From an uncultured Verrucomicrobiae bacterium (GTDB taxonomy: Bacteria > Verrucomicrobiota > Verrucomicrobiia > Chthoniobacterales > JAATET01): a DNA stretch of 64,000 nucleotides. Where the stretch lies: assembly GCA_963719495.1 (NCBI GenBank), contig CAVRCI010000003.1, positions 32,001 to 96,000 of the forward strand. Direction: 5' to 3'. The notes under the pieces are model-generated. The model ran no database searches. It was not told where the DNA came from and was given only the letters and a program-made list of their open reading frames with translations. Both the position numbers and the translations under genes were made by a program. Below are positions 1-64,000 of the stretch, in pieces. The first letter of the stretch is position 1. Every line of letters starts with the position of its first letter.

Positions 1-510
1 CTGTGCCGTCTCGATGTCACCCTCCTTGATGGCCGCTTCCACCTCGACGAGCAGAATCGCGCCCGCCAGATCCTTGGGCGGTTCGGCGAGGGCTTTCAGT
101 TTTTCGAGAATCTCCCTGGCGGCACGCTGCCCCGGCCGATCCTCCAACAGCGTCCGAGCGTAGGCGACTCCCACCGGTGCGATCTGCGCCGGAGCAAACG
201 CAAGAAATGGCTCCAGCGTCCGCCAAGTCTTCCGCAAACCGTCCAAGCCAGACTGCGCGGGCGCCGCGAGCACCTCGGCCGAATCAGCCGGAAGCGCGAA
301 CTCGATCCCGGCGACCTTGTCCGGAGAATAGGTCGTGGCGACCTCCCCGTATTGCGACGCCTCCACGACCCGCAGCGATCCGGCCCCATCCACGCTGATC
401 CGGCCTTCCTTGGTCGAGCCATCGCTCAAAGTGACGGTCTCCGCCCGACCGCAGACGACCAAAGCCGCGCAGGCGGCGACGAGCACGAATTGCAAGGTCG
501 GCCTACGCAT
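1..510 (-). CDS. Secreted partner protein of the TPR operon (runs off the window edge); paralog of 61776..62702
   Basis: Not in the ORF track. ATG at 510 overlaps the TPR gene end and the frame stays open to base 1: MRRPTLQFVLVAACAALVVCGRAETVTLSDGSTKEGRI...SQYGEV...W..LEPFL...VGVAYARTLLE, which matches motifs in 61776..62702. Confidence 0.85.
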   Translation of the reverse strand, partial: MRRPTLQFVLVAACAALVVCGRAETVTLSDGSTKEGRISVDGAGSLRVVEASQYGEVATTYSPDKVAGIEFALPADSAEVLAAPAQSGLDGLRKTWRTLEPFLAFAPAQIAPVGVAYARTLLEDRPGQRAAREILEKLKALAEPPKDLAGAILLVEVEAAIKEGDIETAQ

Positions 511-3289
511 CGGGAGCCTCCTTGTCGGCGGTCGCGGGTGGGGCGGGCAACTGTTCGAGCCGCTTGCGGGCAAGCGCGTATTCAGGCGTGGCGGCGAGAT
601 CGGAGTTGTCGGTGAGTTCCTTGTAGGTGCGCCACGCCTCGTCCTTCATTTCCAGCTCTTCAAACGCCTGGCCGCTCTCCCAGTAGCTCTGCGCGACGAA
701 TTCCGGCATGCCGCCGTAGAGGATGTAGATGCGCTGGAAGTAGGCGATCGCCTTTTTCGGTTCTCCGACGGCGCGGTAGAGCTTGCCGATGCGGTAGATC
801 GTCTCGGCCTTGAGCTTGCCCTTCGTCGACGGCAGATTGATCAATTCTTCCAGCGCGGCGAGCGCCTGCTCCCGTTCGCCGCGCTCCTCGTAGATGTCCG
901 CGGTTGCGAGCAGAATCCGGGGAGTCAGTGGCGAGCTGGCCGCGACTTTCCGGAAAGTTTCGAAATACTCCAGCGCCCGCTTGTCGTCCCCGTCGGCCCG
1001 GGCGAGAAACCCGAGACCCGCGTAGGCCCGGTCTTTACTCAACGAGAGAGGGTAATACCGGAGCAGGGTGCGGTAGAATTCCGTCGCCTTCTCCGGCTCG
1101 CCCGCGTCCCGTAGGGCGTCGGCGACGTCCGCGAGAACCGGGACGCTCAGGTCCGTGGGGGCGGTATCGGCCGCCGTGTCCAGCAGCAGAGTCCCCGCCT
1201 TCGCGGGATTGGCGGTCCGCAGCATTTGCGCCCGCACCCAGCGGGTCCGGCTGGCGAGGGTGGCCTGCTTTTTGCGGGATGCGTTCGTCGTCAGGCCGTC
1301 CAGCCGGGTAACGAAGTCTTCCTGCTCCTCCCCGGGATACAGGCGGGAGAGATTCATGAGCATGTCTTCGACGGCACCCGCTTCGGGGTCGTTGCCGTAT
1401 TTCTCGACGGCCTCCCAGTAGAGTTTTCGCGCCTCGTCGGGCTGATCGTGCGTGCGGTAGTAGCCCGCGAGTTCGTTGAGCGCCTCGGAGATCCGGGAGC
1501 TGTTGGGACGTTCTTCGACGAATTTCCGGAAATGCGCCGTGAACGTGTCCCATTCCTCCAGGGACTCGTGGATTTTCCCGGCGCGGAACCACGCGTAATC
1601 GTAGAGCCGCTCGTTCGCCAGGGTCACCTGGGAATACACCTCGAGCGCCGATTCCCAATCCCCAAGCGCCAGCCGGGCGTCGCCCAGCAGCGCCAGCGCG
1701 TCGTTGTCGAGCCCGGACCCCGGGTGGGCCTCGAGAAACTCCCGCAACTCCTCGCCCGCGGGTTCAAATTGCTTCTGATTGAACAGGGTCTGCGCCATGC
1801 GGAACTCACTGTCCACGGAATGCGAGCCTTCGGGATATTGCTCGAGGTAGGAGGCGTGCGCCTCGCGGGCAGCCGGATAATCGCCATCGTAAAGCTTGGA
1901 CATCGCGAGCCAATACGCCGAATCGTCCCGGTGCGGGCTCTCCGGGAACGTCTCGGGGTGCGATTCGAGCAGCTCCGCGGCGGCGACGTTCTGATCGGCG
2001 AGGAGCAGGGCGTAGGCCGCCATGAAGTGGGCGCGCGCGGCGTAGGTCGATTTTGGAAATTCCTCCGCCACGCGCAGGAACGCGTCGCTGGCCGGCTCGG
2101 GACGTTTGAGCCGGAGCAGCGCCTCGGCCTTGAGGTAGGCGACGTCCGCACCTTGCTCGGAAGTCGGGTGGCGCTCGAGGAAGGCGTCCGCCGCGTCGAC
2201 CGCTTCCGGCCAACTCTCGGTGCGCGAGAGCGCGATCAACAATTGATAATTCGCCCGCTCCAGCAACTCGCTCTCGGGCAGAGTCCCGAGCATTTCCCGG
2301 TAGACCAGCGCCGCTTCGCGAAACCGATCCAAGTCGAAAAATCCTCCCGCGATCCGAAGCTGGAGCGCGCTGTCGAAATTCTCGATCTTTTCGAAGTCCG
2401 CCAATTCCTTCTCCGCTTGCTTGATCGCCTGCTGCATGGAAGCCGCGACGGCGGCCAGCCGGGGATCCTCGGGCACTTTCTCCTTCACCCCGGCGATCAC
2501 CTCCATCGTCCGCGCAATGATGCGTTCGCGCGGCCAGATCCGCTGGAGGACGAGGATGCCCTCGCGTTTCGACCCCTGCCCGAGCAACTTGTCGCCGAGC
2601 TGGAGCGCGGCGAGTTCGAAGCCCGCCAACGAGAGATTATCCGGCATGGCGGGCTCGTATTGCCGGACGAGTTCGGCGGCCCGTTCGAATTGCTCCGACT
2701 CGACGAGGCTCGCGAGGAGCATCTTGAAGGCCTGCGCTTTCTTGTCCCCGGTCAGCTTGTCCTTGTATTCGTCGAGGACCTCGGTGCCGTCAGCGGCCTG
2801 TCCCGCGCGCATCAAGGAAACCGCCATGAAGATGGCCGCCTGCTGCGCGTTGCCCGAGGTCGGGAAGACTTTGATGAACTCTTTGAACGCCGCGCTGGCG
2901 GCTTCGTTCTGCCCGCTTTGCATCAACCCGATGCCGAGGAAAAACGCCACGTCGTCGCGATTCGGGGCACTCGGGAATCTCGACAAATATTGCTTGGCGG
3001 CCTCAGCCACGCCGGACCAGTTCGCCGTCTTCGCGTTCGCGGTGACGAGCATCAAGTAAGCGCGATCCAGATTCGTCGGCTCCTGGCCGGTCTCGTCCAT
3101 CTGACGCAACGCGCTCGCCAAACGCTCGAGGGCCAGCGGGAAGTTCTGCTGATTGTAGGCCTCGACCCCGGCGTCGAACTCCGCTTCGACCGTGTAATAG
3201 ACTTCGGCTTCTTGCGCCGATAGCGCGTGAACGCTCACGCAGAGGGCAAGAATCCAGCCTAGGAATCGCTTGGAGTTCGGGGGAATCAA
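503..3289 (-). CDS. Large periplasmic tetratricopeptide-repeat protein (BamD/YbgF-like repeats)
   Basis: 928-aa ORF with a signal peptide and many F/Y..P.S...A.Y/F TPR units; paralog of 58891..61779. Confidence 0.9.
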   Translation of the reverse strand: MIPPNSKRFLGWILALCVSVHALSAQEAEVYYTVEAEFDAGVEAYNQQNFPLALERLASALRQMDETGQEPTNLDRAYLMLVTANAKTANWSGVAEAAKQYLSRFPSAPNRDDVAFFLGIGLMQSGQNEAASAAFKEFIKVFPTSGNAQQAAIFMAVSLMRAGQAADGTEVLDEYKDKLTGDKKAQAFKMLLASLVESEQFERAAELVRQYEPAMPDNLSLAGFELAALQLGDKLLGQGSKREGILVLQRIWPRERIIARTMEVIAGVKEKVPEDPRLAAVAASMQQAIKQAEKELADFEKIENFDSALQLRIAGGFFDLDRFREAALVYREMLGTLPESELLERANYQLLIALSRTESWPEAVDAADAFLERHPTSEQGADVAYLKAEALLRLKRPEPASDAFLRVAEEFPKSTYAARAHFMAAYALLLADQNVAAAELLESHPETFPESPHRDDSAYWLAMSKLYDGDYPAAREAHASYLEQYPEGSHSVDSEFRMAQTLFNQKQFEPAGEELREFLEAHPGSGLDNDALALLGDARLALGDWESALEVYSQVTLANERLYDYAWFRAGKIHESLEEWDTFTAHFRKFVEERPNSSRISEALNELAGYYRTHDQPDEARKLYWEAVEKYGNDPEAGAVEDMLMNLSRLYPGEEQEDFVTRLDGLTTNASRKKQATLASRTRWVRAQMLRTANPAKAGTLLLDTAADTAPTDLSVPVLADVADALRDAGEPEKATEFYRTLLRYYPLSLSKDRAYAGLGFLARADGDDKRALEYFETFRKVAASSPLTPRILLATADIYEERGEREQALAALEELINLPSTKGKLKAETIYRIGKLYRAVGEPKKAIAYFQRIYILYGGMPEFVAQSYWESGQAFEELEMKDEAWRTYKELTDNSDLAATPEYALARKRLEQLPAPPATADKEAPDA

Positions 3290-3343
3290 GTTGGATGACC
3301 CTAGCAGAGTTTACCGGTCGACGCACTTGGGAAGTCAGGCATT

Positions 3344-3355
3344 TCTACGCGTAAA
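3344..3355. promoter_or_regulatory. Palindromic regulator site TCTACGCGTAAA upstream of the left TPR operon
   Basis: Matches the 12-bp consensus; extended -10 TGcTAGGGT at 3306-3298 on the minus strand. Confidence 0.8.
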
Positions 3356-3379
3356 CAGCTGGCCGGTCCGTCGGGCGGA

Positions 3380-4576
3380 TCAGCCCGGGATCCAGAACGT
3401 TTCCTGCGTTCTCAGCGGGCGGGGCTCCCCGGCGACCTGGAGCGTAATGGTGGCGGCGGGAGAGTCGGGCAGCGGGTCGGACAATCCGCGGAGGAACAGA
3501 CGTTCGCCGCACTGCTCGAACTCGACCGGTTCGCCGGTCGCCTGCCAGCGGGCGCTCAACACTTCGTTGCCGATCTCGGCGAGGCAAAATTCGTCACCCG
3601 GGCAGCGGATCAGATGCACGAAAACCTGCCGACCCTTCGTGGTGATCAGCGCGCTGTTGTTCCACGAGAACGGCGAGCGATCCGAATCCGCCAGAATGTC
3701 GTGATGCCGCCGGACCCAGCGCCCGGCCTCTTCGATGATGCGGACACTTGCCTCCGGGATGCGTCCGTCGCCGCGCGGCCCGACGTTGAGCAGCAAATTC
3801 CCGGCGCTGCCCGCGGTGGTGAGAAGCATTCGGACGACGTCGGCGGGCGTCTTCCAGTTCGTGTCGCCGACGTGCCAGCCCCAGTTATCGTTCAGCGTCA
3901 TGCACGCCTCCCACGGGCCCTGCTTCGCGCTGAGCGACTGCTCGGAGCAGCGAAAATCGAACGGCTCACCGTTGCGTTCGTTGATCAGGATGCCGGGCTG
4001 GAGTTCCTTCGCCAGCCGGTTGGTGTCGCCCCCGTCGCGGAGGGCCGGAATCCCGCCGTCGTACCAGAGAACGTCGATCCGGCCGTAGTTCGTCATGAGC
4101 TCGCGCATCTGCGCCTGCACAAACGAGGCAAAGCCCCGCCGCGCGTCCTCCGAAGCCCACTCATCCGTCCAGTCCCTCGCGTAGGGCGTCGGATAGTCGG
4201 CGTGAAACCAATCCGCGACGGAGTAGTAAAATCCCACGCGCAGCCCCTCGGCCCGCACCGCCTCGACAAACGGTCGCAGCAGGTCGCGACATGCGCCGAT
4301 CTTCGCCGACTGAAAATCCGTCGTCGCCGTGTCCCAGAGACAAAACCCATCGTGATGCCGCGTCGTGAGAACGACGTATTTCATACCGCCCCGCTTCGCC
4401 AAGCGCGCCCATTCAGCAGGATCGTAATTCTCCGCGGTGAACGCCGCGGCGTAACGGTCCCGGTATTCCTCGAAGGGAATGCACTCGCGATTGGCGACCC
4501 ATTCACCCCGCCCGGCAACCGAGTAGGGCCCCCAATGCACAAAAAGACCGTAGCGCGCCGCCGAGAACCATTCCAT
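3380..4576 (-). CDS. Alpha-L-fucosidase (GH29), no signal peptide
   Basis: WF...YGLFVHWG, YVVLTTRHHDGFCLW, LWYDG, WEACMT and GNLLLNVGP motifs. Confidence 0.93.
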   Translation of the reverse strand: MEWFSAARYGLFVHWGPYSVAGRGEWVANRECIPFEEYRDRYAAAFTAENYDPAEWARLAKRGGMKYVVLTTRHHDGFCLWDTATTDFQSAKIGACRDLLRPFVEAVRAEGLRVGFYYSVADWFHADYPTPYARDWTDEWASEDARRGFASFVQAQMRELMTNYGRIDVLWYDGGIPALRDGGDTNRLAKELQPGILINERNGEPFDFRCSEQSLSAKQGPWEACMTLNDNWGWHVGDTNWKTPADVVRMLLTTAGSAGNLLLNVGPRGDGRIPEASVRIIEEAGRWVRRHHDILADSDRSPFSWNNSALITTKGRQVFVHLIRCPGDEFCLAEIGNEVLSARWQATGEPVEFEQCGERLFLRGLSDPLPDSPAATITLQVAGEPRPLRTQETFWIPG

Positions 4577-5848: not shown

Positions 5849-5860
5849 TTTACGCGTAAA
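5849..5860. promoter_or_regulatory. Perfect palindrome TTTACGCGTAAA upstream of the ABC operon
   Basis: Exact palindrome; -10-like TAACCT at 5904-5909. Confidence 0.85.
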
Positions 5861-5923: not shown

Positions 5924-8698
5924 ATGCCACGCCCACAGATTCGCCCTCGATTCCCGCTTCTCCACTGCCTGATCGCGGCGGCGATGCTCGTGGTGCCGGG
6001 CCTCACGGGAACCCGAGCGGCTGAATCCGACGGCGCGAATCGAGCGGACGAGGACAAAGCGACCATTCGCGTCACCGGCTACACGCCGTGGGCTTGGAAC
6101 GCCCTCACCCGCGCCCGGCGCTCGGCCCTTCAGGATTGGCTGGCCACCGAGCGCGATCCGGTGACGGGCGAACTCTGGGGCGACCTCATCAAGCTCGCGC
6201 CCGACAACCAGCTCAGCTTCCCGGGATTCAGCCTCAAGCTCCTCAACTTTGCCGCCGGCACGGGCGAGGAGGTCATCACGACGCCGGACGTCGGCGTGCA
6301 GGATTTTTTTCGCTACCGCGACCAGCGGTTCCTCCTGCCACTCAATCCCTTCATCTGGGAGATCCGCGCGGACGAGGCCGGCAAGCCGCTGCGGGCAAAG
6401 GACGGGAGCTGGGACTACGTCCTCGATGCCCGCGGCGAACGCGTGGTGGTCTGGCCCGACTGGGAAAAGGTCCCCGCGGCCTTCCGGGACATCGTCACGA
6501 ACGACGGCGACGTCTTCGGCCTCCCGATCCAGCGCACGGGGGTGGGACTCATGTATCGACGCGACATGTTCGAGCGGGCCGGGCTCGACCCCGATGCTCC
6601 GCCGCGTGATTGGGATGAGCTGTTCGACGTGGCCCTGCGTATCTCCGCGACTGGCGAAGGAGAGTCTCGCCGGTATGGCCTCATGTTGGCCGGCGATTTC
6701 GTGGAACTTCACACCCTCGGCGGCGGCGGAGAGAGCGCCCGGGTCGAGGAATACCCGGACGGCGCGACTCGCTGGGTCGCGGACTTCGCCTCGCCCGAAC
6801 GCCTCGCCGCGCTGCGCTTCGTCCGCCGTTGCACGCTCACGAAATGGATCGTGACGCCGGACGGCACGCCGCTGATCGTCTGGGAGCCGGATCGCGAGAC
6901 GCAGCCAGTGGTCGAGCATCCTTCCCTCGGAATCGGTCGTTGGGAGGGTGAACCCGGTCGCTCTGGAAGCCAGATCATTTTCCCCGACGCGGCCTACGGA
7001 CCCGCCCAGATCCGCACCGGCGTCGCCTTTAATCAATTGGGCGGATACGGCGTCGGCAACGACGACAAGTGGTACAACCTCTTCGCCGAACCGGAGGGCC
7101 GGCTGGCGATGAGCGTGCAGACGCCGGCGGCCATGATTCAGCAGCTGCAGGCCCTCGACCCCACGCAGGTCGGGTTCGGTCCAATCCCCCGCGGAAAGGC
7201 GGGTGCATTCATCCGCGCCGAGGGGCAGATCGGATCGCTGAACTACGTGCTGGCCGACAATCCCGAGCGGGCCCGGCTGTCCTGGGCCGTGCTCAGTTTC
7301 CTGGCCAGTCGCACTTACGAACGCCTCGCGGTCCATTCCTACGTGCGGGAGGGAGAAGGCGTGGCCGACACCCTCGACCCACGGCTACTCGTCGAGGAAG
7401 GTTACGAGACCATCACCGAGCAGATGTCGCCTTCCATGAAGGCCTATTGGGAGGGACTCGAGTCGTCGACGAAAGCGCCCATAGTGGCGCGGAATTTCCA
7501 GACCTTGTCCGACCAATACCTCCAGCCGATCTACCGGCGCGCGTCGCTGGAGCCAGACTACGACTACCTCACGGCCATCACCGGGGCGGAGGAGCAAGTG
7601 CAGAAGCGGCTGGATTTCCAGATGGGCGATTATCAGCGCGTCGAGGGGCGGGGCTGGATCATCACGGCGATCGTCGTCATTTTCGGCGCCGTCATCATTT
7701 TCAGCTGGGTCGCGTTCCGCTCGCTCTCCCAGCGCTACGACACTTCCAGTCAACGACCCGCGAAACGAAGCCGCGCGGACCGACGCCGAGCCCTCACGGC
7801 CTACTCCCTGCTGGCTCCGGGGATGATCCTCATCCTGGTCTTCAGCTACTACCCGATCCTCATTTCGCTGCCAATCGCGTTCCAGGATTACTACGTGGTC
7901 GGTGAAAGCGAGTGGATCGGTATCGCCAACTTCGTCGAGGTCTTCAGCAATCCGGTGACGTGGATCTCGCTCGCAAAAGCATTCTATTACCTGGGGCTCA
8001 CGGCCGCGGTCGGCTTCCTGGCCCCGGTGGTGCTCGCAATTCTGTTGAGCGAAACGTTCTCCATGCGCTACCTGCTGCGCACCATCTACTACCTGCCCGC
8101 CGTGGTCGCCGGGATTGTCATGCTGCTCATGTGGCGCCGGTTCTTCGAAGCGACCCCGGAAGGAATGGTCAACCGGCTCGTCATGCCGCTGATGGAACTC
8201 TGGAACAAAGTCGCGCCCGGCATCCGGTGGGACATCGCCGTCGAGCCCGTCGATTGGCTGCATCACCCGATCCTGGGCATTCCCAGCATCGTCTTCGTCG
8301 GCATCTGGGGCGGGATGGGACCCGGGATGCTGATTTATCTCGCGGCGCTCAAGAGCGTGCCGGAGGAACTCTACGAAGCGGCGGAACTCGATGGGGCCGG
8401 CTGGTGGGCGCGCTTCAGCCAGATTACCCTCTCTTATCTCCGTCCGCTTCTCGTGATCAACTTTGTCGGAGCGGTCATCGGAGCCTTCCAAGCTTCGGGA
8501 AACATTCTGGCGCTCTCCGGGAATTTCCCGGCGACCTACACCTTCGCGGTGCACATTTGGTTCGAGGCCTTCGGGCTCGGGCAATTCGGTGTCGGCACGG
8601 CTCTTTCGTGGGTGATGGCCAGTCTGCTGGTCGGCTTCACCGTCTGGCAGCTCCGGATCCTTCGCGACGTCGAATTCAAAAAAGCGGGAGCAGACTGA
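5924..8698 (+). CDS. Carbohydrate ABC transporter: substrate-binding protein fused to a MalF-like permease
   Basis: Signal peptide from ATG 5924; SBP motif LMYRRDMFERAGLDP...P.DWDEL; C-terminal TMs with the EAA loop ELYEAAELDGA. Confidence 0.9.
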   Translation: MPRPQIRPRFPLLHCLIAAAMLVVPGLTGTRAAESDGANRADEDKATIRVTGYTPWAWNALTRARRSALQDWLATERDPVTGELWGDLIKLAPDNQLSFPGFSLKLLNFAAGTGEEVITTPDVGVQDFFRYRDQRFLLPLNPFIWEIRADEAGKPLRAKDGSWDYVLDARGERVVVWPDWEKVPAAFRDIVTNDGDVFGLPIQRTGVGLMYRRDMFERAGLDPDAPPRDWDELFDVALRISATGEGESRRYGLMLAGDFVELHTLGGGGESARVEEYPDGATRWVADFASPERLAALRFVRRCTLTKWIVTPDGTPLIVWEPDRETQPVVEHPSLGIGRWEGEPGRSGSQIIFPDAAYGPAQIRTGVAFNQLGGYGVGNDDKWYNLFAEPEGRLAMSVQTPAAMIQQLQALDPTQVGFGPIPRGKAGAFIRAEGQIGSLNYVLADNPERARLSWAVLSFLASRTYERLAVHSYVREGEGVADTLDPRLLVEEGYETITEQMSPSMKAYWEGLESSTKAPIVARNFQTLSDQYLQPIYRRASLEPDYDYLTAITGAEEQVQKRLDFQMGDYQRVEGRGWIITAIVVIFGAVIIFSWVAFRSLSQRYDTSSQRPAKRSRADRRRALTAYSLLAPGMILILVFSYYPILISLPIAFQDYYVVGESEWIGIANFVEVFSNPVTWISLAKAFYYLGLTAAVGFLAPVVLAILLSETFSMRYLLRTIYYLPAVVAGIVMLLMWRRFFEATPEGMVNRLVMPLMELWNKVAPGIRWDIAVEPVDWLHHPILGIPSIVFVGIWGGMGPGMLIYLAALKSVPEELYEAAELDGAGWWARFSQITLSYLRPLLVINFVGAVIGAFQASGNILALSGNFPATYTFAVHIWFEAFGLGQFGVGTALSWVMASLLVGFTVWQLRILRDVEFKKAGAD

Positions 8699-8699
8699 C

Positions 8700-15695: not shown

Positions 15696-15860
15696 GCGCG
15701 CGATCATCGTTCACTCGCCGCGCAAGACAAGATCGAAGCCCCTTTTCGGCAGGTTCAGGGTGTGATTGCGAAAATTGTCGGTCATGCGGCGCGCTGGGTG
15801 AAGAAGTGGGCGCGGAAGGGATTCTGCGCCCTACCTTTGGTGACCGTTTTCGCGGTCACA

Positions 15861-16146
15861 CCCGAATGGCACTGCTTTAAGCGGTTCGTCGGCGGAAAAC
15901 GGGTTACTGGTTCACCGGATGACTTGAGTCCAAACTGGCTTATTTACCCTCGCAGGGCAGTTGCGCGCAGTGTGCAGAAAGTCAGAGATTCTTCGGATTA
16001 CCTCAGAATGACAGCTTGGGGGGACGGGAGACATTCGTTGCGAAGCAACGTCTTCGTCCAAACCTGTCATCCTGAATGCAATGAAGGATCTCTGACTTTT
16101 CAGGACGAGAGCGGTCGAAAACTCGCTTAAAACAGTGCCATTCCGA
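15861..16146. mobile_element. MITE family 1, copy 2, with a nested long hairpin repeat
   Basis: TIRs GAATGGCACTGCTTTAAGCG (15864-15883) and CGCTTAAAACAGTGCCATTC (16124-16143); 5-bp TSD TCACA (15856-15860, 16147-16151); inner inverted repeat 15978-16019 / 16058-16099. Confidence 0.8.
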
Positions 16147-16160
16147 TCACACCCGCAGAT

Positions 16161-18434: not shown

Positions 18435-18536
18435 ACTTTCCAACGATGGTTCGACAGACCGCTCCTGTCATTACCGTTTTACGTCAAAGTCTTACTTTTT
18501 CGCGTCTAAGGCGTTTTTTTTGCAAAACGAAGAGGA

Positions 18537-48336: not shown

Positions 48337-48377
48337 GAGTGGAAGCGAACACCGCGCCAATCGCGCGGCTCGCCATT

Positions 48378-51659: not shown

Positions 51660-51668
51660 GATCGGGCA

Positions 51669-51732
51669 ACCATAGAAACCCCCGCCACCCGAGGCAACGG
51701 CCCGGCGGGCAATCCGCATGTTTACGCGTAGA
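51669..51732 (-). promoter_or_regulatory. Site TTTACGCGTAGA (51721-51732) plus promoter
   Basis: TTGCCT(51697)-N17-TATGGT(51674), 47 bp from the site. Confidence 0.85.
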
Positions 51733-55745: not shown

Positions 55746-55757
55746 GGAAAGAGAAGG

Positions 55758-58550
55758 TCAGGGGTTCGAAACGGAGGTGGGCTTTTCCGCGACGGCTGCG
55801 GTGACCGAGTCCCCGCCGCCGGGTTCGCCCGCCAGCCACGCGAAGAGGTTGCGGGCATACTGCGCGTTGTCGTGTTCGGTGATGTCGGTGCCCGCGCCGT
55901 TCGCGTTGAAGAACGTGTTGCGGTCGAAATGGATCGCCACCCGCCCGGCGTCCGCCGTTGCGACGATGAGCGACCCGTCCCGCGCATCGGTCGGGCGGGT
56001 CGTGCCCTGGCATTTCTTCGAGCCCGGCGTGCCATCGTTGTTGCGGGTGTTGCCGGAGGCGGCGGCGAGCCGCGTGATGCTCACCCCGGCGGGCGGCGGG
56101 CCGGCGGGGATGCGCCCCGGCGAGACGCCTTCGCCCATGAAGGTGTCCACGCCGTCGAAGATCGGGTGGTTCGGAACGACGAACCCGCCCTTCGCGAGAT
56201 CGACCGTGTAGAGGCCGAGGTCCTGGTTCACCGCGAGTCCGAAGCGGTCGAGGAATTGCTGATCGGAATCCGGCGCGTCGCACCAGCTCGATCCGAAGTT
56301 CGCATCGGAGATGAACAGCGCCGCGCCACCGCCGCGCACGTAGGCTTCGAGCGCGTCGATCGCGGCGGTGCCGTAGACCGCGTTGTTCGAGGCGAGGACG
56401 ACTGCCGCGTATTCGTCGAGATCGAGCGCGGCGAGGTCGAGCGGCGCGCCGATGGTCTGCCCGGTGCCGGGAGCGCCGGACTCGAGTGGTTCGGCCACTT
56501 GCTCGACGATGAAGCCCTCGCCCTCGAGCAGGACCTTCAGCGCGCCCCAGCCGTGGTTGCCGTTGTTGGTCGCGGTGTTGCCGAGATCGGCGAGTTGCTC
56601 GGTGCGGTCGGCGTCGTTTTTCGCTTCGAGGAAGCCACCGCTGCGGTCCGCGCCGCGGATGAAGAGCAGCTTCTTCGGCGACGAGACCAGGGCGACCCAG
56701 TCGGCGGTCGCGGGCGCCGGGGGGGAGCCGAGCGAGACGCTGCCGCCGCCGGTGACGGTCGTGACGGAGCCGGGCTGGAGCGCGCCGCCATTGCGCGGAT
56801 CGAACCACCTGACGTCGAACGTCCCCGGCTGGTCCGTGAGATCGAGCGACCGCGTCCCGCCCGACGGCAGGAAGACGACGTATTCGCTGCCCTCCTTCGC
56901 GAGGCAGAATCCGTCGTCGATGTTGTCGGCGGCGTTGCCGACGAGATCGTTGCGGTTGTGCATTTCCCAGAAGGGCACGCCATTTTCCGAAAAGAACTCG
57001 AGCGCGTGTCGGCACTGGTCCCACCAAAGGTCGCGGGAGCGAAAATCCTGCAGCGTGAGATCGGATTGCGCGTGCGAATAACCGAAATACCATTCGTTCC
57101 CAGCGCCGCCCGCCATCAGCGTGCCCCAGAGTGCGCGCTTGCGCGGCACGTCGTGCGTCGGATCGTCGGCGTCGGGCACCAGCGCGTGCGAGGCGTCGCC
57201 AGGTTCGTCCACCGCCACGACCCACGGTTTGCCGACGGTGGCGGACTTGTCGATCCACTCCTTCGTCCAGCCAAAGACTTTGGCAAAATTTTTCGAGTTG
57301 GTCTGGATCGACACACCGGTGAGTTCGGACGCGGTCCCGAGCATGGGCGTGTAGATCGCGCTTTGCTCGCCGGGGTAGGTGTGGATCACGATCGGGTGGC
57401 CATACGGATCGTGGTCGCGAAAATACTGCGCCATCGCCTTCCGCTGGGCGTCGGTCTGGTCCTTGCTCTCCTCGCCGAGGTTCCAGTTCAGCGCGAGGTG
57501 GTGGGCGAAGCGGGCGATCAGCTCGCGGTAGTAGAGCTTGCGCTGCGTGCCGACGCCACCGCCGTCGAGGAGCGTCTCGTTCTCGGTCTCCTGCGTCTTG
57601 AAATGCAGATACATCCCTCGCGCGTCGGCGTGCGTGAAGACCACCTCCCACTGGTCGAGCCGCGACACGTCCAGTCGCACCCGCTCGCCGTAGGCGGTGT
57701 AGGGGAAAACGTTTTTGTCGTCGCCGTCGATGTTCATGGTGAGGAACGAGAAGGCGTTCAACCCTTCGTCCGCGAGGTAGTTGATCGCGCCGATCAGCCC
57801 CTTGCCCCGGCCGTTCCGCCACGTCGGGTCGCCGGGCTGCCAGTCCGCAACGTGAGGCCCCCACGTCTTGATCTTGTCGTCGGCCCGGCCGTCGCTCTTG
57901 AAGTCGCCGTCGAAGTCCGAGTAGGCCAGCAGGTTCTCGGGCGAGTCCGCTCCCTGTTTCAGAAAATACCCGCCCGTCCCGGCCCAGCGCAGGTGGTGCC
58001 CGCCGACGTATTCGAGCAGGCCGCGCGCGCGATTGTCGGGCACGGCCTTGTCGCCCGCGACGACCTCGAACGTGCCGTCGACCTCGCCGTCGGGGTCGCC
58101 ATTCAACGTCGCGGCGCCACCGGGTGCCGCCTCGTCGCTCACCGCCACATCCGTCCCGGTGCTAAACTGCGCCGCGAAATTCCACGTCCCAAGTTCCGGC
58201 GGGGCGAAATGGACGCGCCAGATGTTGCCTGCCGCCGCGCCGGTCTCGCCCGCAGCGCCGTCGGCCGCGTAGTAGCCGGGCACGACGAAACTCCTGCCGC
58301 TGGCCGGATGCGTGAACGTGACATCGAGCCGGTAGTCGAGAAATGGATTGGGCGTCGCGTCCTCGGAGGACGCCGGCCCCTCGAACGCGACCGTCACCCG
58401 GTGCCACTGCCGGAGGTCGCCATGAACGCCGACGGTCGGCGTGCTCGACACAGCCGAAGGTGTGGCCGCGGCGGCCTCGCGCCCGGATTCTGCGGAGGCG
58501 GAAATCCAGAGGCCGAAAAGCAGCGATAGGAAGGGGAGGAGAGCTTTCAC
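55758..58550 (-). CDS. Secreted DUF5060/DUF4038-like putative glycoside hydrolase with collagen-binding-like and glutamine-amidotransferase-like C-terminal domains
   Basis: NPFLDYRL.V.F.H, VPGYYAADG, WNLGEE, VRWFDPRNGG; signal peptide from GTG 58550. Confidence 0.8.
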   Translation of the reverse strand: MKALLPFLSLLFGLWISASAESGREAAAATPSAVSSTPTVGVHGDLRQWHRVTVAFEGPASSEDATPNPFLDYRLDVTFTHPASGRSFVVPGYYAADGAAGETGAAAGNIWRVHFAPPELGTWNFAAQFSTGTDVAVSDEAAPGGAATLNGDPDGEVDGTFEVVAGDKAVPDNRARGLLEYVGGHHLRWAGTGGYFLKQGADSPENLLAYSDFDGDFKSDGRADDKIKTWGPHVADWQPGDPTWRNGRGKGLIGAINYLADEGLNAFSFLTMNIDGDDKNVFPYTAYGERVRLDVSRLDQWEVVFTHADARGMYLHFKTQETENETLLDGGGVGTQRKLYYRELIARFAHHLALNWNLGEESKDQTDAQRKAMAQYFRDHDPYGHPIVIHTYPGEQSAIYTPMLGTASELTGVSIQTNSKNFAKVFGWTKEWIDKSATVGKPWVVAVDEPGDASHALVPDADDPTHDVPRKRALWGTLMAGGAGNEWYFGYSHAQSDLTLQDFRSRDLWWDQCRHALEFFSENGVPFWEMHNRNDLVGNAADNIDDGFCLAKEGSEYVVFLPSGGTRSLDLTDQPGTFDVRWFDPRNGGALQPGSVTTVTGGGSVSLGSPPAPATADWVALVSSPKKLLFIRGADRSGGFLEAKNDADRTEQLADLGNTATNNGNHGWGALKVLLEGEGFIVEQVAEPLESGAPGTGQTIGAPLDLAALDLDEYAAVVLASNNAVYGTAAIDALEAYVRGGGAALFISDANFGSSWCDAPDSDQQFLDRFGLAVNQDLGLYTVDLAKGGFVVPNHPIFDGVDTFMGEGVSPGRIPAGPPPAGVSITRLAAASGNTRNNDGTPGSKKCQGTTRPTDARDGSLIVATADAGRVAIHFDRNTFFNANGAGTDITEHDNAQYARNLFAWLAGEPGGGDSVTAAVAEKPTSVSNP

Positions 58551-58670: not shown

Positions 58671-58732
58671 AGAATATCCGATCAACCTCGAAACGCCAAC
58701 CCGCACCGGGTGGACGAGATTTTACGCGTAGA
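58671..58732 (-). promoter_or_regulatory. Site TTTACGCGTAGA (58721-58732) plus promoter
   Basis: TTGGCG(58699)-N17-TATTCT(58676). Confidence 0.8.
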
Positions 58733-58890: not shown

Positions 58891-61779
58891 ATGCCACGCC
58901 CCCCCGACGGCACCGTGCTCGAGTCAGATTTACATTCCCGCGACCGGGGACGCGGCCCGGTATCCACGCTCGTTCGGGTGGCCGTGATCGCCGCCGCGAT
59001 AGCGACGGTGAGCACCGGACGAATGGAAGCGCAGCCGAGTCCGGCGGACGGATTGGATGCCGGGTGGGCCAGCTACCAGAGCGGAAAGTTTCCGGAAGCG
59101 GCTGCGAGTCTGGAAAAATTCACCGCCGAGCAGAGCGGCAATGCGGCGTATCTCGGCGTGTTCAAGCGCGTCACCTACCTCCTGGCGTTGTGTTACGTGA
59201 AGACGGAGGACTGGGCGAAGGTCCACGACGCCGTCGAGCGCTTCGCGAAGGCCACCGGGGAGGGTCAGCCAGGATGGGAGGACGAGTTGACATTCTGGAA
59301 TGGCGTGGCGCTCGTGAAGACCGGCGAGCCCGCCGCCGGGCGCGAGGCGTTGCTGGCTTTCTTGAAGTCGAATCGGGACCCGGCCAAGCGGTTCCCCGCC
59401 ATTCTGCTCGTCGGATCGGCCTACACCGCGGAAGGAAAGTCAGCCGAAGCCGCCGCCTTTTACGCGCAAGCCGGAGCCTCGCTGCCGACCATGGATGCCG
59501 CCCGGCTCCGAATGCTCGAGTTGGACTCCTACGTTGCCGCCGACGATCTGCCCGGCGCGATCGCCGCGGCGGATCGCGGCTTCGCGGTGCTCGACGAGAT
59601 GCCGCAAGTCGTCGCGTTTCAACTCCTCGCGCTGCAATTGGCCGAGAAACTGATCGAGGCCGATCGGGTCCGCGAAGCCATCGCGATCCTGCTGCGGATC
59701 GGATCACGCGAGGAATTGCTGGCTCTCCAGCAGCAGCGCATCGATCAACTCGCACCGCGGATCTCCGCCTCGACCGCCGGTGACCCCGGCCTCGCCGCGC
59801 TTTCCAAGCTCTCGGAGAGCGTGAAATCCGACGCCGCGAGGCTCGCGGACGTCCCGGATTTCGACTCGATGGTGCGCTTCCGCCTGGCCTCCGCTTTCCT
59901 TCGTCTGAAACGCTACAACGAGCTGACATTCATCTTGAGCGGGATGCTCGCCGACCTTCCGGCCGACGCGATCAACGAGCAGGCGTCCGACACGCTCGTC
60001 CGCTCCTACATGCAGGTCGGACGATGGCCGCGGGTCGTCGAGACGGCCCGTGCCTTCCGCGAAAAGTTCCCCAACTCGGCATCGCTCCCGGGCGTCATGC
60101 TGCTCGAAGCCCAGGGGCTGCAGGAACAAGGGAAGCTCGACGAGGCCGAGAAGGCGTTCGGTGAATTGGTCGAAAAATTCCCCCAGGACGATCTCACCCC
60201 GGAGGCCACATTTCTGCGGGCATTCAACGACATGCTGCGCGAGGAATTCGAATCCGCCATCGCGCAGTTCCAAGCCATCGCCCAGGACGAATCCGACACC
60301 GCGACCGCGGAGAAGGCGATGTTCTGGACCGCCGAAGCCGAATCGATGCGCAAGGCACCGGACGCCACGATCACCGCCGCCGACGCCTATCTGGAGAAGT
60401 ATCCGCGGGGCGAATACGCACCGGACGCTCTCTATCGGAAGGCATTCGCCCTCCACGCGCTGCGCGACTACGAGGCCAGCGTCCCGCTACTCGAGACCTT
60501 CCTGAAGCAAAATCCCGGCCACACCTACGCCGGCGAGGCGCTCCTCCTGAAAGCCGACGCCGCGCTGGCCCAGGGCGATACCAAGGCCGGGCTCGCCCTG
60601 CTGGCGTCGGTCGCACCGGGTCCGTATTACGAAGAGGCGCAATTCCGCACCGCCAAGGTCCATCGGCTCGCCGAGGACCACGACGCGCTGCGCGAGCACC
60701 TCGAGAAGTTCGTCTCGAACAATCCAGCCAGCGCCCGCCTGGCCGAAGCGGTCTATTGGATCGCGTGGAGCTGGCGCGACGACCCGGCGAAGCAAAACGC
60801 AGCTTACTGGACGGCCATCGACCGTTTCGGCAACGATCCCGCCCAATGGGGCGTTCAGGAAATCCTCCAAGGCCTCATCAAGGCCAACGGAGGCGAGGAA
60901 GCGAAGCAGGAGCTGGCGGAGAAATTCCGCCAGGAAAGTCGAAAGGCCGAACTCGCCAAAAAGCGCTCGCTCGATCTTCAGCTCCGCTGGGCCCAGGCGG
61001 AATTGATTCGCAAATCGGACCCCGGCGCCGCCCGCCAGCTTCTCGTGGACTCCGCGCCATTCCTCGATCCGGCCCGCGACAATCCGCAGATTCTCGTCGC
61101 CGTCGCCGACGCCCTCCGTGCCGCCGGGAAGCGACCCGAGGCCAGCGCGCTCTACGCCGACATCCGGCGATGGAACCCCACCTCGACGGCCAACGACCGC
61201 GTCTTCGCTGCGCTGGGCGGGATGTCCGCCGAGGACGGGGACTACGCGAAAGCGCTCGAATATTTCGACCGCTTCGACCGCGAGATCCCGTCCTCCGCGC
61301 TGCGAGCCGAGATCGGGCTTGCCTCCGCCAACGCCCTCGTCGAACTCGAGCGCTACGACGAGGCGATCCAGAAAATCGAGACGCTGCTCGATACGAAGTC
61401 CGCCCCGAAACGCCTCAAGGCCTCGGCGCTCGTCGCCCTCGGTCGGATCGAGATCACCCGCGGCGAACCCCGCCGCGCGGTCGCCCCGCTGCAACGGGTT
61501 TACGTCCTCTATGGCGCCTACCCGGAACTCGCCGCGGAGGCCTACGTCGAAACCGCCAAGTCGCTCGAGAAACTGGACGACCCACTCGGCGCTGCCCGCA
61601 CTTACCTCGAGTTTCTCGAGACCGGCCGGCTGGATACGCCCGCGACGAAAGCCTTCGTCGCCGAAGCTCGAAAAAATTTGGCCGACATCCCCGCAGCGAC
61701 GCGGACCGAGGCCGAGGCGCAGAACCGTGCCGCGGCCGAAGCCGTCGCCACGGCCAGCGTGGGGGGGGCGGGGTCATGA
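58891..61779 (+). CDS. Large periplasmic TPR protein, paralog of 503..3289
   Basis: TPR repeats; shared FDS....R.A..F and QR.Y.LYG..PE..A..Y...A.RTY motifs; start uncertain. Confidence 0.9.
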   Translation: MPRPPDGTVLESDLHSRDRGRGPVSTLVRVAVIAAAIATVSTGRMEAQPSPADGLDAGWASYQSGKFPEAAASLEKFTAEQSGNAAYLGVFKRVTYLLALCYVKTEDWAKVHDAVERFAKATGEGQPGWEDELTFWNGVALVKTGEPAAGREALLAFLKSNRDPAKRFPAILLVGSAYTAEGKSAEAAAFYAQAGASLPTMDAARLRMLELDSYVAADDLPGAIAAADRGFAVLDEMPQVVAFQLLALQLAEKLIEADRVREAIAILLRIGSREELLALQQQRIDQLAPRISASTAGDPGLAALSKLSESVKSDAARLADVPDFDSMVRFRLASAFLRLKRYNELTFILSGMLADLPADAINEQASDTLVRSYMQVGRWPRVVETARAFREKFPNSASLPGVMLLEAQGLQEQGKLDEAEKAFGELVEKFPQDDLTPEATFLRAFNDMLREEFESAIAQFQAIAQDESDTATAEKAMFWTAEAESMRKAPDATITAADAYLEKYPRGEYAPDALYRKAFALHALRDYEASVPLLETFLKQNPGHTYAGEALLLKADAALAQGDTKAGLALLASVAPGPYYEEAQFRTAKVHRLAEDHDALREHLEKFVSNNPASARLAEAVYWIAWSWRDDPAKQNAAYWTAIDRFGNDPAQWGVQEILQGLIKANGGEEAKQELAEKFRQESRKAELAKKRSLDLQLRWAQAELIRKSDPGAARQLLVDSAPFLDPARDNPQILVAVADALRAAGKRPEASALYADIRRWNPTSTANDRVFAALGGMSAEDGDYAKALEYFDRFDREIPSSALRAEIGLASANALVELERYDEAIQKIETLLDTKSAPKRLKASALVALGRIEITRGEPRRAVAPLQRVYVLYGAYPELAAEAYVETAKSLEKLDDPLGAARTYLEFLETGRLDTPATKAFVAEARKNLADIPAATRTEAEAQNRAAAEAVATASVGGAGS

Positions 61780-62702
61780 GCGCGTTCATCCACCGCTTCC
61801 CGATCCGCCGGACGGCTTCGATCTGCCTGGCGATCTTCGGACTCGCCGCGCAACCGCTCCGGGCGGACGTGACTGGCGACGTGATCCAGCTCGCATCCGG
61901 GAAGGAAGTGCAGGCGCGCGTGAGCGGTCTCGACGGCGAAGCTCTCACCCTCATCCGCAAGACCCAATACGGAGTCGTCACCGAGCGGCTTCCGTTGGAT
62001 CAGGTGCGAGCCGTCAAGTTCGCCGACGAGGAACGCCTCGCCGCCGACCTTCCGAAGCTGACCGACCGCGCGCGACTCGAGCAGCTCTGGAATGCCCGCA
62101 AACCCTTCCTGCCCATTCCGGAATCGATGGCCGGAGCCGTCGGTCTGCGCTTCGCACGGGTGCTCCTCGATTCCACCAAACCCGCCGACGCCCAGCTCGC
62201 GGAAGGCGTTCTGGATGACGTCGAGGAGAAGGACTGGAGCAAACCCCGCCGCGCCGACGCCTCGGGCCTGCGCTTCGAGGCTCTCCTGAAATCCGGGGAC
62301 GAAGCGACCGCGCTCGCCCGGGCCGAGGAGGCTCTCGCGCGCAAGGACCAGCCCCGCATGCGGTCCGACGCGAGCTACTTTCTCGCCAATCGGGCGATCA
62401 ACGAGTTCCTCGAGCTGCTCGCCGAGAACCCGCGGTGGAGTCAGGACCCCTTCGTCCGGCCGGAGCGCGACCGCCTGTATTACACCGCGATCGACCTGCT
62501 TCTCATCCCGTATCTCGAGGACGGCTCCTCCCCGGAGACGGCGTCCCGGAGCGTCTGGCGGCTCTCCGAATTCTACGCCGAAGCGGGCGAAACCGAGGCC
62601 GCCCGCTCGAGCGCACAGGACGTCGTGACCATTTTTAGCTCCACCCCCGAGGCGAAACTCGCCGAGAAATATCTGACCACATCCGAAAAAACCGAACCAT
62701 GA
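61776..62702 (+). CDS. Secreted partner protein (N-terminal beta domain plus TPR-like helices)
   Basis: ATGA overlaps at both ends; signal peptide MSAFIHRFP...LAAQPLRA. Confidence 0.85.
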   Translation: MSAFIHRFPIRRTASICLAIFGLAAQPLRADVTGDVIQLASGKEVQARVSGLDGEALTLIRKTQYGVVTERLPLDQVRAVKFADEERLAADLPKLTDRARLEQLWNARKPFLPIPESMAGAVGLRFARVLLDSTKPADAQLAEGVLDDVEEKDWSKPRRADASGLRFEALLKSGDEATALARAEEALARKDQPRMRSDASYFLANRAINEFLELLAENPRWSQDPFVRPERDRLYYTAIDLLLIPYLEDGSSPETASRSVWRLSEFYAEAGETEAARSSAQDVVTIFSSTPEAKLAEKYLTTSEKTEP

Positions 62703-63532
62703 ACGCCCACCTCTCTCCCCTCCGCCCCCCCCTCCGAGCCCTGCTCTACGCGAGTCTGCTGACAATCGCGATCTCCGCGTCGTCGCACGCGCAGGAGCCC
62801 GCCGCCACGCCTCCCCCCCCGCCCGCCGTCGCCGAGAAGTCGCTGCTCGACCTCTACGCCCAGGGTGGCTTGCTCATGCATTTCATCCTCGTCTGCTCGA
62901 TGGGGACGATCACCGTCGGCATCTACTGCGCCCTGCAGATCAATCGACGGAAAATGCAACCAGCCGCGCACATCGGCGCCCTCACGCAGTTCATGCAGTC
63001 ACGCGACGTCGGAGGAGCCTACGAATTCTGCCAGCAGCACCCGAATGCCTACACGAACACCGTTTCCGCCGCGCTTCTCAAGGTGAATTTCGAGCGGGAA
63101 CTGGCCAACAAATTTTCCATGGAGCAGGCCGCCGCCGAGTCGCTCGCCGAGGTCGAGACCCGGAGCATGGTCTGGGTGAACTACCTGAACGTGTTTGCCA
63201 CCCTCGCGCCGATGCTCGGGTTGCTGGGGACGGTGACGGGCATGATCCAAAGTTTCGACCAGCTCGCAGCCGGACGCAGCGAGCCGGCGGACCTCGCGGG
63301 GGGCATCGGGCAGGCCATGCTCACGACCGCGGGCGGTCTCATCGTCGGTATCCCGGCCATGTTCCTGTATTTCTTCTTCCGGAACCAATTGCTCATCGTC
63401 GTGACCGAGATTCAGAAATCCGTGACCTTCCTGATCGATATTCTCAGCGGGGAATTGAAGCTCGAGGGAGCGGTCGACCCCGCGGCGACGACCGAGCCGC
63501 CGCCGGAGCAGCAGCCCTCGGAGGAAGCCTGA
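62699..63532 (+). CDS. exbB: MotA/TolQ/ExbB proton channel protein
   Basis: APMLGLLGTVTGMIQSF and LAGGIGQAMLTTAGGLIVGIPA. Confidence 0.93.
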   Translation: MNAHLSPLRPPLRALLYASLLTIAISASSHAQEPAATPPPPPAVAEKSLLDLYAQGGLLMHFILVCSMGTITVGIYCALQINRRKMQPAAHIGALTQFMQSRDVGGAYEFCQQHPNAYTNTVSAALLKVNFERELANKFSMEQAAAESLAEVETRSMVWVNYLNVFATLAPMLGLLGTVTGMIQSFDQLAAGRSEPADLAGGIGQAMLTTAGGLIVGIPAMFLYFFFRNQLLIVVTEIQKSVTFLIDILSGELKLEGAVDPAATTEPPPEQQPSEEA

Positions 63533-63560
63533 TCACCGTGCATCCCGCCGCCGCCCCCCG

Positions 63561-63971
63561 ATGAAAATCGAACGTCGTTCCAGCGGAAAGCCGGGCTTCA
63601 TGCTCGCGCCCATGATCGACATGACCTTTCTGCTGCTCATCTTCTTCATGGTCACCACGAAGATCAGCAAGGATAAGGTCAATCTCGAGATCGCCCTGCC
63701 TACCGCGGCCAACGCCGTGCGACCCGATGACCTCACGAACCGCGACATCATCAACATCGACAGCGCGGGGAACTATTTCATCTCCAACGACCCGATGACC
63801 AAGGAGTCGCTGCGAGCCTACCTCGTGAAACGATTTGAAAACTACCCACCGCTCCGTCTCTACGTCCGCGCGGACCGCAATACGCCCAGCAAACAAATCA
63901 AGGAACTGATGCGCCTCGCCGCCGAAGCTGGAGCCATCGACGTCATCTTCGGCAGCTACGAGAAGGAATGA
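63561..63971 (+). CDS. exbD: ExbD/TolR biopolymer transport protein
   Basis: LAPMIDMTFLLLIFFMVTT (conserved Asp) and VRADR.TP. Confidence 0.93.
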   Translation: MKIERRSSGKPGFMLAPMIDMTFLLLIFFMVTTKISKDKVNLEIALPTAANAVRPDDLTNRDIINIDSAGNYFISNDPMTKESLRAYLVKRFENYPPLRLYVRADRNTPSKQIKELMRLAAEAGAIDVIFGSYEKE

Positions 63972-63972
63972 A

Positions 63973-64000
63973 ATGAAGGTCCGTCGTCGCGAAGAAGAGG
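63973..64000 (+). CDS. Start of the next gene, probably a second ExbD (truncated)
   Basis: MKVRRREEE starts 1 nt after the exbD stop and resembles ExbD N-termini; only 9 codons visible. Confidence 0.55.

Follow-up and report, generated by a model that had tools for sequence, protein, structure and literature searches.

A shared operator joins glycan-degrading enzymes, a Verru_Chthon pilin-like cassette and TPR/ExbBD motor operons in a verrucomicrobial genome

Introduction

In the SusC/SusD polysaccharide utilisation loci (PULs) of Bacteroidota, co-regulated carbohydrate-active enzymes (CAZymes) are combined with inner-membrane importers, a sugar-sensing regulator and ExbBD as the energy source. 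How polysaccharides cross the outer membrane of those Verrucomicrobia in which SusC/D pairs are few or missing matters for carbon turnover as well as for Akkermansia, a gut symbiont. Here we analyse a 64,000-nucleotide stretch of DNA (the window; C3:32001-96000 of genome G000, 4.54 Mb, 98.6% complete) from an uncultured Verrucomicrobiae bacterium, which shares these components with the Bacteroidota PULs but contains no TonB-dependent barrel or plug, and whose stalk proteins are devoid of the TonB C-terminal domain. One near-palindromic operator precedes approximately 15 transcription units in two loci of this genome, including the adjacent LacI gene. It joins three systems that have been described separately: (i) the Verru_Chthon cassettes, (ii) the motor-vWA locus of the Planctomycetes-Verrucomicrobia-Chlamydiae (PVC) bacteria, and (iii) the mucin utilisation locus MUL1 of Akkermansia. 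The locus supplies a specific motif, a regulator and a gene list.

One report calls mul1A (amuc_0544) a mucin transport gene (10.1101/2025.02.20.639370), another describes nine CAZymes that associate with Mul1A (10.1101/2024.03.27.586211), and the supplement of PMC13174399 names MUL1B (amuc_0543) and ExbD/B as components of MUL1. According to PMC13174399 (2026), aquatic Akkermansiaceae have neither a MUL1B homologue nor MUL1 synteny, and MUL1 is reported to be gut-specific. MUL2 of Akkermansia contains a pilin set different from Verru_Chthon.

PMC12204202 (2025) describes the vWA form of the PVC motor locus and models how its histidine contacts the motor; it gives the locus no established function but puts forward a role in gliding. 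Operon 1 of the window resembles that form, encoding a TPR protein, ExbB, two different ExbDs and a stalk composed of a His-bearing helix, a disordered linker and a vWA head. Because PMC12204202 describes the vWA form, the motor design is already known. Unlike that locus, the regulon described here also includes stalks of the PA14 and FHA-DUF4159 types, and it has a partner gene that is conserved as well as an operator tied to sugar genes. The main text of PMC12204202 contains no mention of PA14, DUF4159, Akkermansia, mucin or polysaccharide, and in relation to that text regulation by sugar is new, as are heads of the PA14 and DUF4159 types.

In a literature search that covered few subscription journals and the main text of PMC12204202, no paper was found for "Verru_Chthon", or for MUL1 in combination with Akkermansia and ExbB; the link between MUL1 and the motor could already be stated outside this coverage. 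The individual parts are each known or named; what is new is that a single operator unites them and that they connect to MUL1, neither of which was found in print.

Results

One operator in two glycan loci

Genes were called with a purpose-built hexamer model, and 33 window proteins were scanned against Pfam and NCBIfam. The comparison set comprised 40 relatives, including five congeners, one of which (G004) proved particularly informative. The window contains 11 matches to the operator (TNTACRYGTANA), every one of them intergenic, where 0.00 were expected, and the looser pattern TACRYGTA likewise has 11 (0.27 expected); these odds are flattered, because the pattern was derived from these very sites. 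In the whole genome 15/15 matches are intergenic. The other four belong to a second glycan locus (C2:678-698 kb) containing GH52, GH42, GH10-like and GH29 genes, an ABC importer, and beta-helix and MAM/PA14/PKD proteins, and one of them lies 17 bp upstream of the start of a LacI gene, which occupies L002:14440-15471.

An independent test was provided by the relatives: G004 has 13 sites (two with a reversed-pattern control), while the remaining 39 of the 40 have 0-3. In G004 the genes of the window and of the C2 locus, that for LacI among them, are joined in one island of approximately 83 kb. The LacI orthologue, 99% identical, is present only in this genome, the sole one of the five congeners with sites, and the other four carry only paralogues of at most 40% identity. 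Moreover, the operator footprint upstream of TPR1 and the two that separate the cassette from the Gfo gene, one per start, have been kept in G004 while their flanks diverge. The operators of TPR1 and of the FHA gene sit between co-directional genes and, because of this orientation of their neighbours, can serve only those two genes. We are highly confident that the operator-defined regulon is real, and the LacI protein, judged by gene position and distribution, presumably binds the operator. The XylR-type regulator encoded in the window was considered as the owner of the operator and rejected, since its promoter has no site, whereas there is one at the LacI gene, whose occurrence among the congeners follows that of the sites.

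The original prediction, made from the window alone, had placed the same palindrome before the cassette, both TPR operons and most enzyme and transporter units. This is borne out, with the qualification that some of the promoters are divergent and that the block 12551-18443 (DUF2264, LamG, the XylR-type regulator and the first PEP-CTERM gene) has no close operator. Its count of about 12 glycan-active genes was fair: ten window genes have glycan-related domains (GH29, three pectate-lyase-like beta-helix, two GH28, CE15, DUF2264, DUF5060 and DUF1961/LamG), and three more large proteins (639, 526 and 1093 aa) have signal-peptide-like N-termini and no match to a glycan-related family. The two inner-membrane importers it listed are an ABC permease pair, one member of which is fused to a binding domain, and one SSF symporter, and the two TPR genes of about 900 aa, ExbB, ExbD and two PEP-CTERM genes are all present. 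No ABC ATPase gene was found in the 64-kb window, and PDB sequence searches with the 1093-aa and 639-aa proteins gave no match.

DUF2264 is a family which we take to be a beta-glucuronidase (GH154). The enzyme set of the whole regulon (two GH29, two GH28, CE15, four beta-helix lyase-like proteins, GH42, GH52 and GH10-like) points to a fucose-, galactose-, xylose- and uronic-acid-containing polymer as the candidate substrate.

Two further observations were made. A related motif, TTTAC-GG-GTAAA, precedes another LacI paralogue with a similar helix-turn-helix (G000:C4:334871), which suggests a family-wide recognition code of LacI proteins. Neither of the two ABC systems of the regulon, that of the window (5984-10580) and that at L002:3135-6566, has an adjoining ATPase gene.

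The Verru_Chthon cassette as a predicted pseudopilus tip

The cassette (39186-45540) consists of four adjoining minus-strand genes in the order B-C-A-D and is a member of the Verru_Chthon family (TIGR02600, 02598, 02599, 02596), to which no function is assigned; the present analysis supplies the family with a predicted GspK fold, places a member in a regulon and shows that cassettes accompany glycan enzymes in several genomes. Checked against the TIGRFAM models, A, C and D score above the cut-offs (899.9/332.3, 298.8/256.5 and 91.4/70, respectively), while B reaches 49.6 against 51.4 on an open reading frame (ORF) with about 80 extra N-terminal residues and is 37% identical to a paralogue. The prepilin motif PF07963 is above the cut-off in D and C, and is carried by B at 19.9 against 21.2.

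A PDB sequence search with Verru_Chthon A gave no match, and an alignment-free model of this protein, which reached a predicted local distance difference test score (pLDDT) of only 31, was discarded. The fold was modelled instead on the full-length homologue P0091 (32% identical end to end; 58 sequences), for which AlphaFold gave pLDDT 80 and a predicted template modelling score of 0.85. With VIA-align the P0091 model matched GspK (Z 12.5, root-mean-square deviation 3.5, 248/280 aligned) and XcpX (Z 12.4), the next unrelated rows being HhH domains at Z 6.6; GspK was found by VIA-align alone, as Foldseek gave no match at E<=0.001. Across 120 A homologues conservation is lowest in a beta-rich insert, approximately residues 620-940 of the window protein. 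Because A is predicted to fold as a giant GspK, alongside three small prepilin-type genes, B-C-A-D is, on this model, a GspH/I/J/K-like pseudopilus tip set without a motor of its own; the H/I/J assignment of B, C and D we infer from size, motif and weak NCBIfam hits. The tip of the type II secretion system (T2SS), GspH-I-J-K (PDB 3CI0, 5VTM), likewise combines three small prepilin-type proteins with a GspK-fold cap. In contrast to it, the window cap exceeds the length of the solved GspK chain more than fourfold, no major pilin, ATPase, platform or secretin is encoded beside the cassette, and the genome holds eight variant caps.

Seven of these eight A-like genes lie near a glycoside hydrolase, sulfatase or lyase-like gene (Pfam, 74 chosen proteins scanned), and the eighth (C11:142 kb) has a weak BNR hit only. 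In a survey of 15 cassette regions of other genomes, taken from the strong matches, two of which were dropped as orthologues of counted loci, 29 of the 106 neighbours of at least 200 aa were glycoside hydrolases, lyases, sulfatases, SASA esterases or sialidase-like proteins, spread over 10 of the 13 loci. A phylum-wide TIGR02600 search (E<=1e-8, at most six candidates scored per genome) matched 3/91 genomes and was not used to judge how widely the cassette is distributed. When the seven remaining G000 cassettes were searched, in a crude way, for palindromes of their own, nothing convincing emerged. The A gene of the C14 cassette (L042:8356-11995; G000:C14:66338-69992) is split over several frames, and its G004 copy is one 1326-aa gene.

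Motor operons and TonB-like stalks

Each of the two motor operons consists of six genes, encoding a TPR protein, the partner, ExbB, two different ExbDs and the stalk; both extend past the ends of the window, with their sixth genes outside it. The stalks are built of a membrane helix bearing a histidine, a Pro-rich linker and a globular head. In operon 1 the head is of the vWA type (PF13519 at E 2e-5, just below the cut-off; a homologue is above the cut-off for PF13768). That of operon 2 is PA14-like, not vWA, as indicated by a paralogue above the cut-off for PF07691 together with alignment and Atlas support. The FHA-DUF4159 gene, with its own operator, has the same type of helix (SILFH). The membrane histidine is invariant in 36/36 aligned stalks and was detected by pattern in 44/50, with S/T four residues before it in 23. 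PDB sequence searches with the partner and the PA14 stalk gave no match, and a complex prediction for the two ExbD periplasmic domains and the stalk linker scored 0.02, evidence neither way.

There are four six-gene operons in G000: two are those described here, one lies beside another cassette and one among housekeeping genes. Related ExbBs occur in 438 GTDB stretches, and all six genes were found in 49 of the best 80 of these, the rest being short contigs or poorly called; the motor-gene relatives carry mostly Chthoniobacterales and Verrucomicrobiales names. Stalks of the PA14 type are present in 24/121 genomes of the order, and 10 of the 16 regions fetched were clearly within six-gene-type operons. 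We conclude that the motor is a widely conserved general machine that has been duplicated into the regulon and is in general not substrate-specific. Some stalks of related operons carry other heads, such as a prenyltransferase-like alpha/alpha toroid (L141:8883-10403), and two or three tandem vWA stalk copies are found in L135 and L136.

Probable homology to MUL1

In each of four genomes that belong to a single genus, identified as A. muciniphila by protein look-up, there are four ExbB genes. Their candidate locus (L151-L153), exbB-exbD-exbD-TPR(~1100 aa)-347-aa protein, is probable MUL1, judging from the species, the content and a position about a quarter along the chromosome. Its ExbB, both ExbDs and TPR protein have their best G000 matches among the four six-gene operons. 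In a 45-sequence tree the putative MUL1 ExbB and the window ExbB fall into one clade (99/97), which also holds G000 C13_6; the exact sister within it is weakly supported (87/82) and the Akkermansia branch is long. The remaining Akkermansia ExbBs, three in number, are paired with three separate G000 genes, again on long branches. Two further candidates for the MUL1 counterpart were rejected: the TPR protein C12_19 is absent from the matches of the Akkermansia TPR, and the ExbB of the C5 exbB-exbD-TPR operon pairs with another Akkermansia ExbB.

The partner family (56 sequences) and the family of the 347-aa protein, taken as MUL1B (87 sequences), were aligned by HHalign with a probability of 96.4% (E 1.2e-9, 253 columns, 13% identity) from the signal peptide to the C-terminal helices; the N-terminal domains alone gave 82%. 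As a control, each family was compared with the TPR profile, which yielded 88-90% over partial length only. Neither single sequences nor shallow profiles of partner and MUL1B aligned significantly (probability 0.1% and 2%); significance was reached with the deepened profile alone. By profile comparison, the partner and MUL1B are remote but end-to-end homologues, and we consider it probable that the motor operons are homologous to MUL1. Unlike MUL1, the window operons are duplicated and placed under a local sugar regulator, and the identity between the two is very low.

The MUL1B profile retrieved 102 clusters at 50% identity (habitats are not given by this search), and a metagenome-assembled genome labelled Akkermansiaceae (L123) carries the six-gene operon; these results call into question the gut-specificity of MUL1B stated in PMC13174399. 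In G119, of the same family, TPR-exbB-exbD-exbD is followed by two PA14 stalks. A stand-alone PA14-headed stalk without the membrane histidine, 33% identical to the operon 2 stalk, is encoded at L131:9313-10584 in the A. muciniphila-type genome G116.

Outer-membrane entry

The TonB receptor (PF00593) and plug (PF07715) domains have no match in G000, the controls in three known genomes being positive. The original prediction had noted the lack of a TonB-dependent receptor in the window, which is true of the whole genome, and the possibility it raised of an operator-bearing receptor just outside the window finds no counterpart: there is none in G000, and the TonB-receptor matches of G004 are on a separate contig without the operator motif. 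Ten ExbB homologues stand against only two TonB_C matches in G000. No SusD family was found among the Pfam hits of the scanned window and second-locus proteins; no genome-wide SusD search was made. Elsewhere G000 has five secretin genes, five PilB/GspE-type ATPases and three PilTs above the cut-off.

Among 41 relatives, the same six genomes have no match to cassette gene C and none to the partner; three of these have 2-10 TonB-receptor matches, and the other three are small and have none. This is suggestive of alternative strategies among relatives, with weak matches included and kin that are not independent.

Discussion

The motors resemble distant relatives of the Akkermansia mucin-import machinery, which suggests receptor-free uptake of complex sugars. 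We give an even chance to the view that the two loci form a polysaccharide utilisation regulon without SusC/D, whose tip and motor serve capture and import, not export or adhesion. The step we hold most confidently is that a sugar would lift the repression exerted by LacI at the operator. Next in confidence, the tip set would be loaded onto shared pilus/T2SS machinery of the cell, whose genes, including those for secretins and PilT, lie elsewhere. Glycan may then be bound by the variable insert of the cap, and retraction may bring it to or through a secretin. Least confidently, a proton-driven stalk could pull a periplasmic TPR/partner complex; following the proposal made for MUL1/MUL2 of Akkermansia, this complex might hold hydrolases and pass fragments on to the importers of the ABC and SSF types. 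On this view substrate specificity would reside mostly in the tip and the enzymes, not in the motor.

Several results weigh against this proposal. The regulon encodes no recognisable outer-membrane barrel or channel, and for that reason outer-membrane entry is unexplained. The absence of a receptor is atypical of the genus, since all five congeners have 1-3 TonB-receptor matches. The cassette and TPR2 operators lie in divergent promoters, each shared with an enzyme gene, and the G004 island holds one motor operon only. Homology to MUL1B is remote, the MUL1B hidden Markov model missing the G000 partners at E<0.5; the gene order is exbB-exbD-exbD-TPR-MUL1B there and TPR-partner-exbB-exbD-exbD-stalk here, and the Akkermansia locus has no stalk gene. 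A cassette gene lies within 10 kb in one of the 80 motor loci (best 80 of 438), and in G002 and G003 the motor operons are far from the strongest cassette matches. Among motor-locus neighbours, with housekeeping genes around, glycan enzymes number 1/118 over 16 loci (2/118 if polysaccharide deacetylase is included), and the lone case also has a cassette gene. Set against the 29/106 of the cassettes this gives a Fisher p of about 1e-9, overstated because kin are not independent. PA14-headed operons were rejected as markers of glycan loci, 0/10 having a match to a 38-enzyme reference set (with crude gene calls).

The idea of a substrate-specific PUL counterpart, put forward in the original prediction, is partly supported: a single operator covers enzymes, importers, cassette and motors, while the motor is conserved among housekeeping neighbours. 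The expected co-localisation holds for cassettes with glycan enzymes (10/13 loci) but not for motor operons with glycan enzymes (1/16) or for cassettes with motors (1/80). Its minor-pilin tip gained support from the GspK fold match of the A homologue, and its Akkermansia link is real at the level of homology, through best matches, the ExbB clade and the partner/MUL1B profile alignment.

A doubtful but serious competitor is export or display, with the cassette acting as a type II secretion tip that selects the large enzymes and PEP-CTERM proteins of the regulon as substrates, the motor and TPR proteins helping to fold, move or release enzymes at the surface, and small products entering via ordinary porins. 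The T2SS tip contacts its substrates, GspK/XcpX is the best fold match of the cap, and the predicted GspK fold points as readily to secretion as to import; there is a full T2SS-like operon on C2, and several regulon enzymes of 1200-1800 aa have a common C-terminal "...F.RL.V" tail, a possible sorting signal. PMC13274419 describes one pseudopilin in an alginate-induced gene cluster and another over-expressed on alginate, an association that counts in favour of our proposal; its authors, however, propose T2SS export of alginases and read the pseudopilin of the cluster as part of it, which speaks against import. On the other side, a cap insert of several hundred variable residues is more adhesin-like than expected of an export adaptor, caps are encoded by eight different genes in this genome, which also has PilT, and the related Akkermansia locus has been described, in the reports cited above, as a mucin importer. 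A further alternative is attachment or movement, in which the tip would bind polysaccharide particles and the motor, stalk and TPR proteins would form a gliding or adhesion machine, both substrate-induced and transporting nothing. PA14 and vWA are both adhesion domains, and the FHA-stalk gene scores weakly against GltG, via the FHA domain only. The MUL2 pilus is assigned to attachment in PMC13174399, and a gliding-like role of vWA transducers is suggested in the main text of PMC12204202. We nevertheless find this alternative unlikely, as the stalk heads would be periplasmic, on an inner-membrane stalk, and outer-membrane entry would be left unexplained in a genome without a TonB receptor. The Akkermansia relative is tied to mucin import, in a species that is not known to be motile.

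It might also be that the operator controls the enzyme and importer genes only, and that cassette and motor are carried along in a mobile island. The island does occupy another position in G004, and four congeners do not have it; moreover, the sites at the cassette and at TPR2 are divergent, and motor operons are housekeeping elsewhere. What makes such passengers very improbable are the TPR1 and FHA-stalk sites, which between co-directional genes can serve only those genes, the two conserved sites at the cassette region, one per start, and the company that cassettes keep with glycan enzymes across genomes.

Taking import as the working view, we extend it tentatively to receptor-free glycan import throughout the phylum, in which a retractable pilus with swappable glycan-specific GspK-like tips would bring polymer to a secretin and hand over to a proton-driven TPR conveyor, each Verru_Chthon cassette being one tip set per substrate locus. 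If this were true, a TPR conveyor with a TonB-like vWA/PA14 stalk, hauling glycan through the periplasm, would be the common ancestor of Akkermansia MUL1. MUL1 would then not be gut-specific, and the vWA transducer locus would represent the form that it takes in the environment. As for the transducer that MUL1 lacks, a candidate would be found in the PA14 stalk that Akkermansia encodes in a stand-alone gene (L131).

Features of the window

Table 1. Coordinates of the features of the window and of the operon parts that lie beyond it.
Feature	Coordinates	Strand	Remarks
Motor operon 1, 5' part of partner gene	1..486	-	MUL1B-like
Motor operon 1, remainder	C3:28830-31560		exbB, exbD, exbD, vWA-headed stalk gene; outside window
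Giant TPR protein 1 (~911-928 aa)	503..3289	-	first gene of motor operon 1
Operator before TPR1	3344..3355		55 bp before TPR1, between co-directional genes; conserved in G004
GH29 alpha-L-fucosidase	3380..4576	-	PF01120 E 3.5e-79; operator 4632-4643
Operator before ABC permease operon	5849..5860		
Two sugar-ABC permeases	5984..10580	+	first fused to solute-binding domain
Beta-helix lyase-like protein	10604..12187	+	DUF4955; match to BT3328-family lyase weak, below cut-off
DUF2264, DUF1961/LamG, XylR-type regulator	12551..17276	-	regulator: AraC plus sugar-binding domain; no close operator site
PEP-CTERM protein 1	17487..18443	-	
Operator and beta-helix lyase-like protein	18706..21105	+	operator 18706-18717; protein with Ig domain, from 18766
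Operator, 639-aa and 526-aa proteins	21158..24731	+	operator 21158-21169; signal-peptide-like N-termini
FHA-DUF4159 gene, third TonB-like stalk	28392..30403	-	FHA, membrane helix (SILFH), linker, DUF4159; operator 30392-30403
PEP-CTERM protein 2	30566..31417	-	operator 31476-31487, common with divergent FAD oxidoreductase 31520-33094
Operator, SSF symporter, CE15 esterase, GH28	33159..38164	+	operator 33159-33170
Verru_Chthon D	39186..39812	-	GspH/FimU-like minor pilin (putative)
Verru_Chthon A (1370 aa)	39818..43930	-	predicted GspK/XcpX-fold tip pseudopilin with large variable insertions
Verru_Chthon C	43931..45043	-	putatively GspJ-like, from position and size
Verru_Chthon B	45040..45540	-	putatively GspI/PilV-like, from position and size
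Operator before cassette	45608..45619		68 bp before gene B
Weaker second site	~45670		nearer divergent Gfo gene; both positions kept in G004
Gfo/Idh/MocA sugar dehydrogenase	45808..47043	+	
1093-aa protein, then GH28	47092..51732	-	1093-aa protein of no known family, signal-peptide-like N-terminus; operator 51721-51732
DUF5060 protein, beta-helix/PKD protein	52002..58550	-	missing from G004 island
Operator between DUF5060 and TPR2	58721..58732		divergent; weaker second site from 58792
Giant TPR protein 2	58891..61779	+	first gene of motor operon 2; missing from G004 island
Partner protein 2	61776..62702	+	small N-terminal beta domain and helical repeats; remote MUL1B-family homologue
exbB and first exbD of operon 2	62699..63971	+	
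Motor operon 2, remainder	L006:573-2197		second exbD, PA14-headed stalk gene; outside window

Several further features of the island were observed. A short "F-x-R-L" C-terminal domain, a possible export or anchoring signal, is found on large proteins encoded at window position 52002 and by G000 C2_415, C2_418, C13_40, C13_367 and C13_606. Three genes of the segment 23151-28054 share 99-100% protein identity between G000 and G004 (L031:4987-9890), with neighbours at 80-91%; this may reflect a recent exchange, or reads common to both assemblies. Within it, at 24664-25602, approximately four copies of a 213-bp unit hold the 3' ends of both convergent genes, the gap being of equal length in G004. 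A 42-bp element occurs in tandem at 12323-12406, with a third copy at 51835-51876, and an 83-bp repeat pair is present at 38473-38805; both are probably remnants of mobile elements. Finally, a PIN-domain gene lies inside the glycan island at 27611-28290, with space upstream for a short ORF of the antitoxin type.

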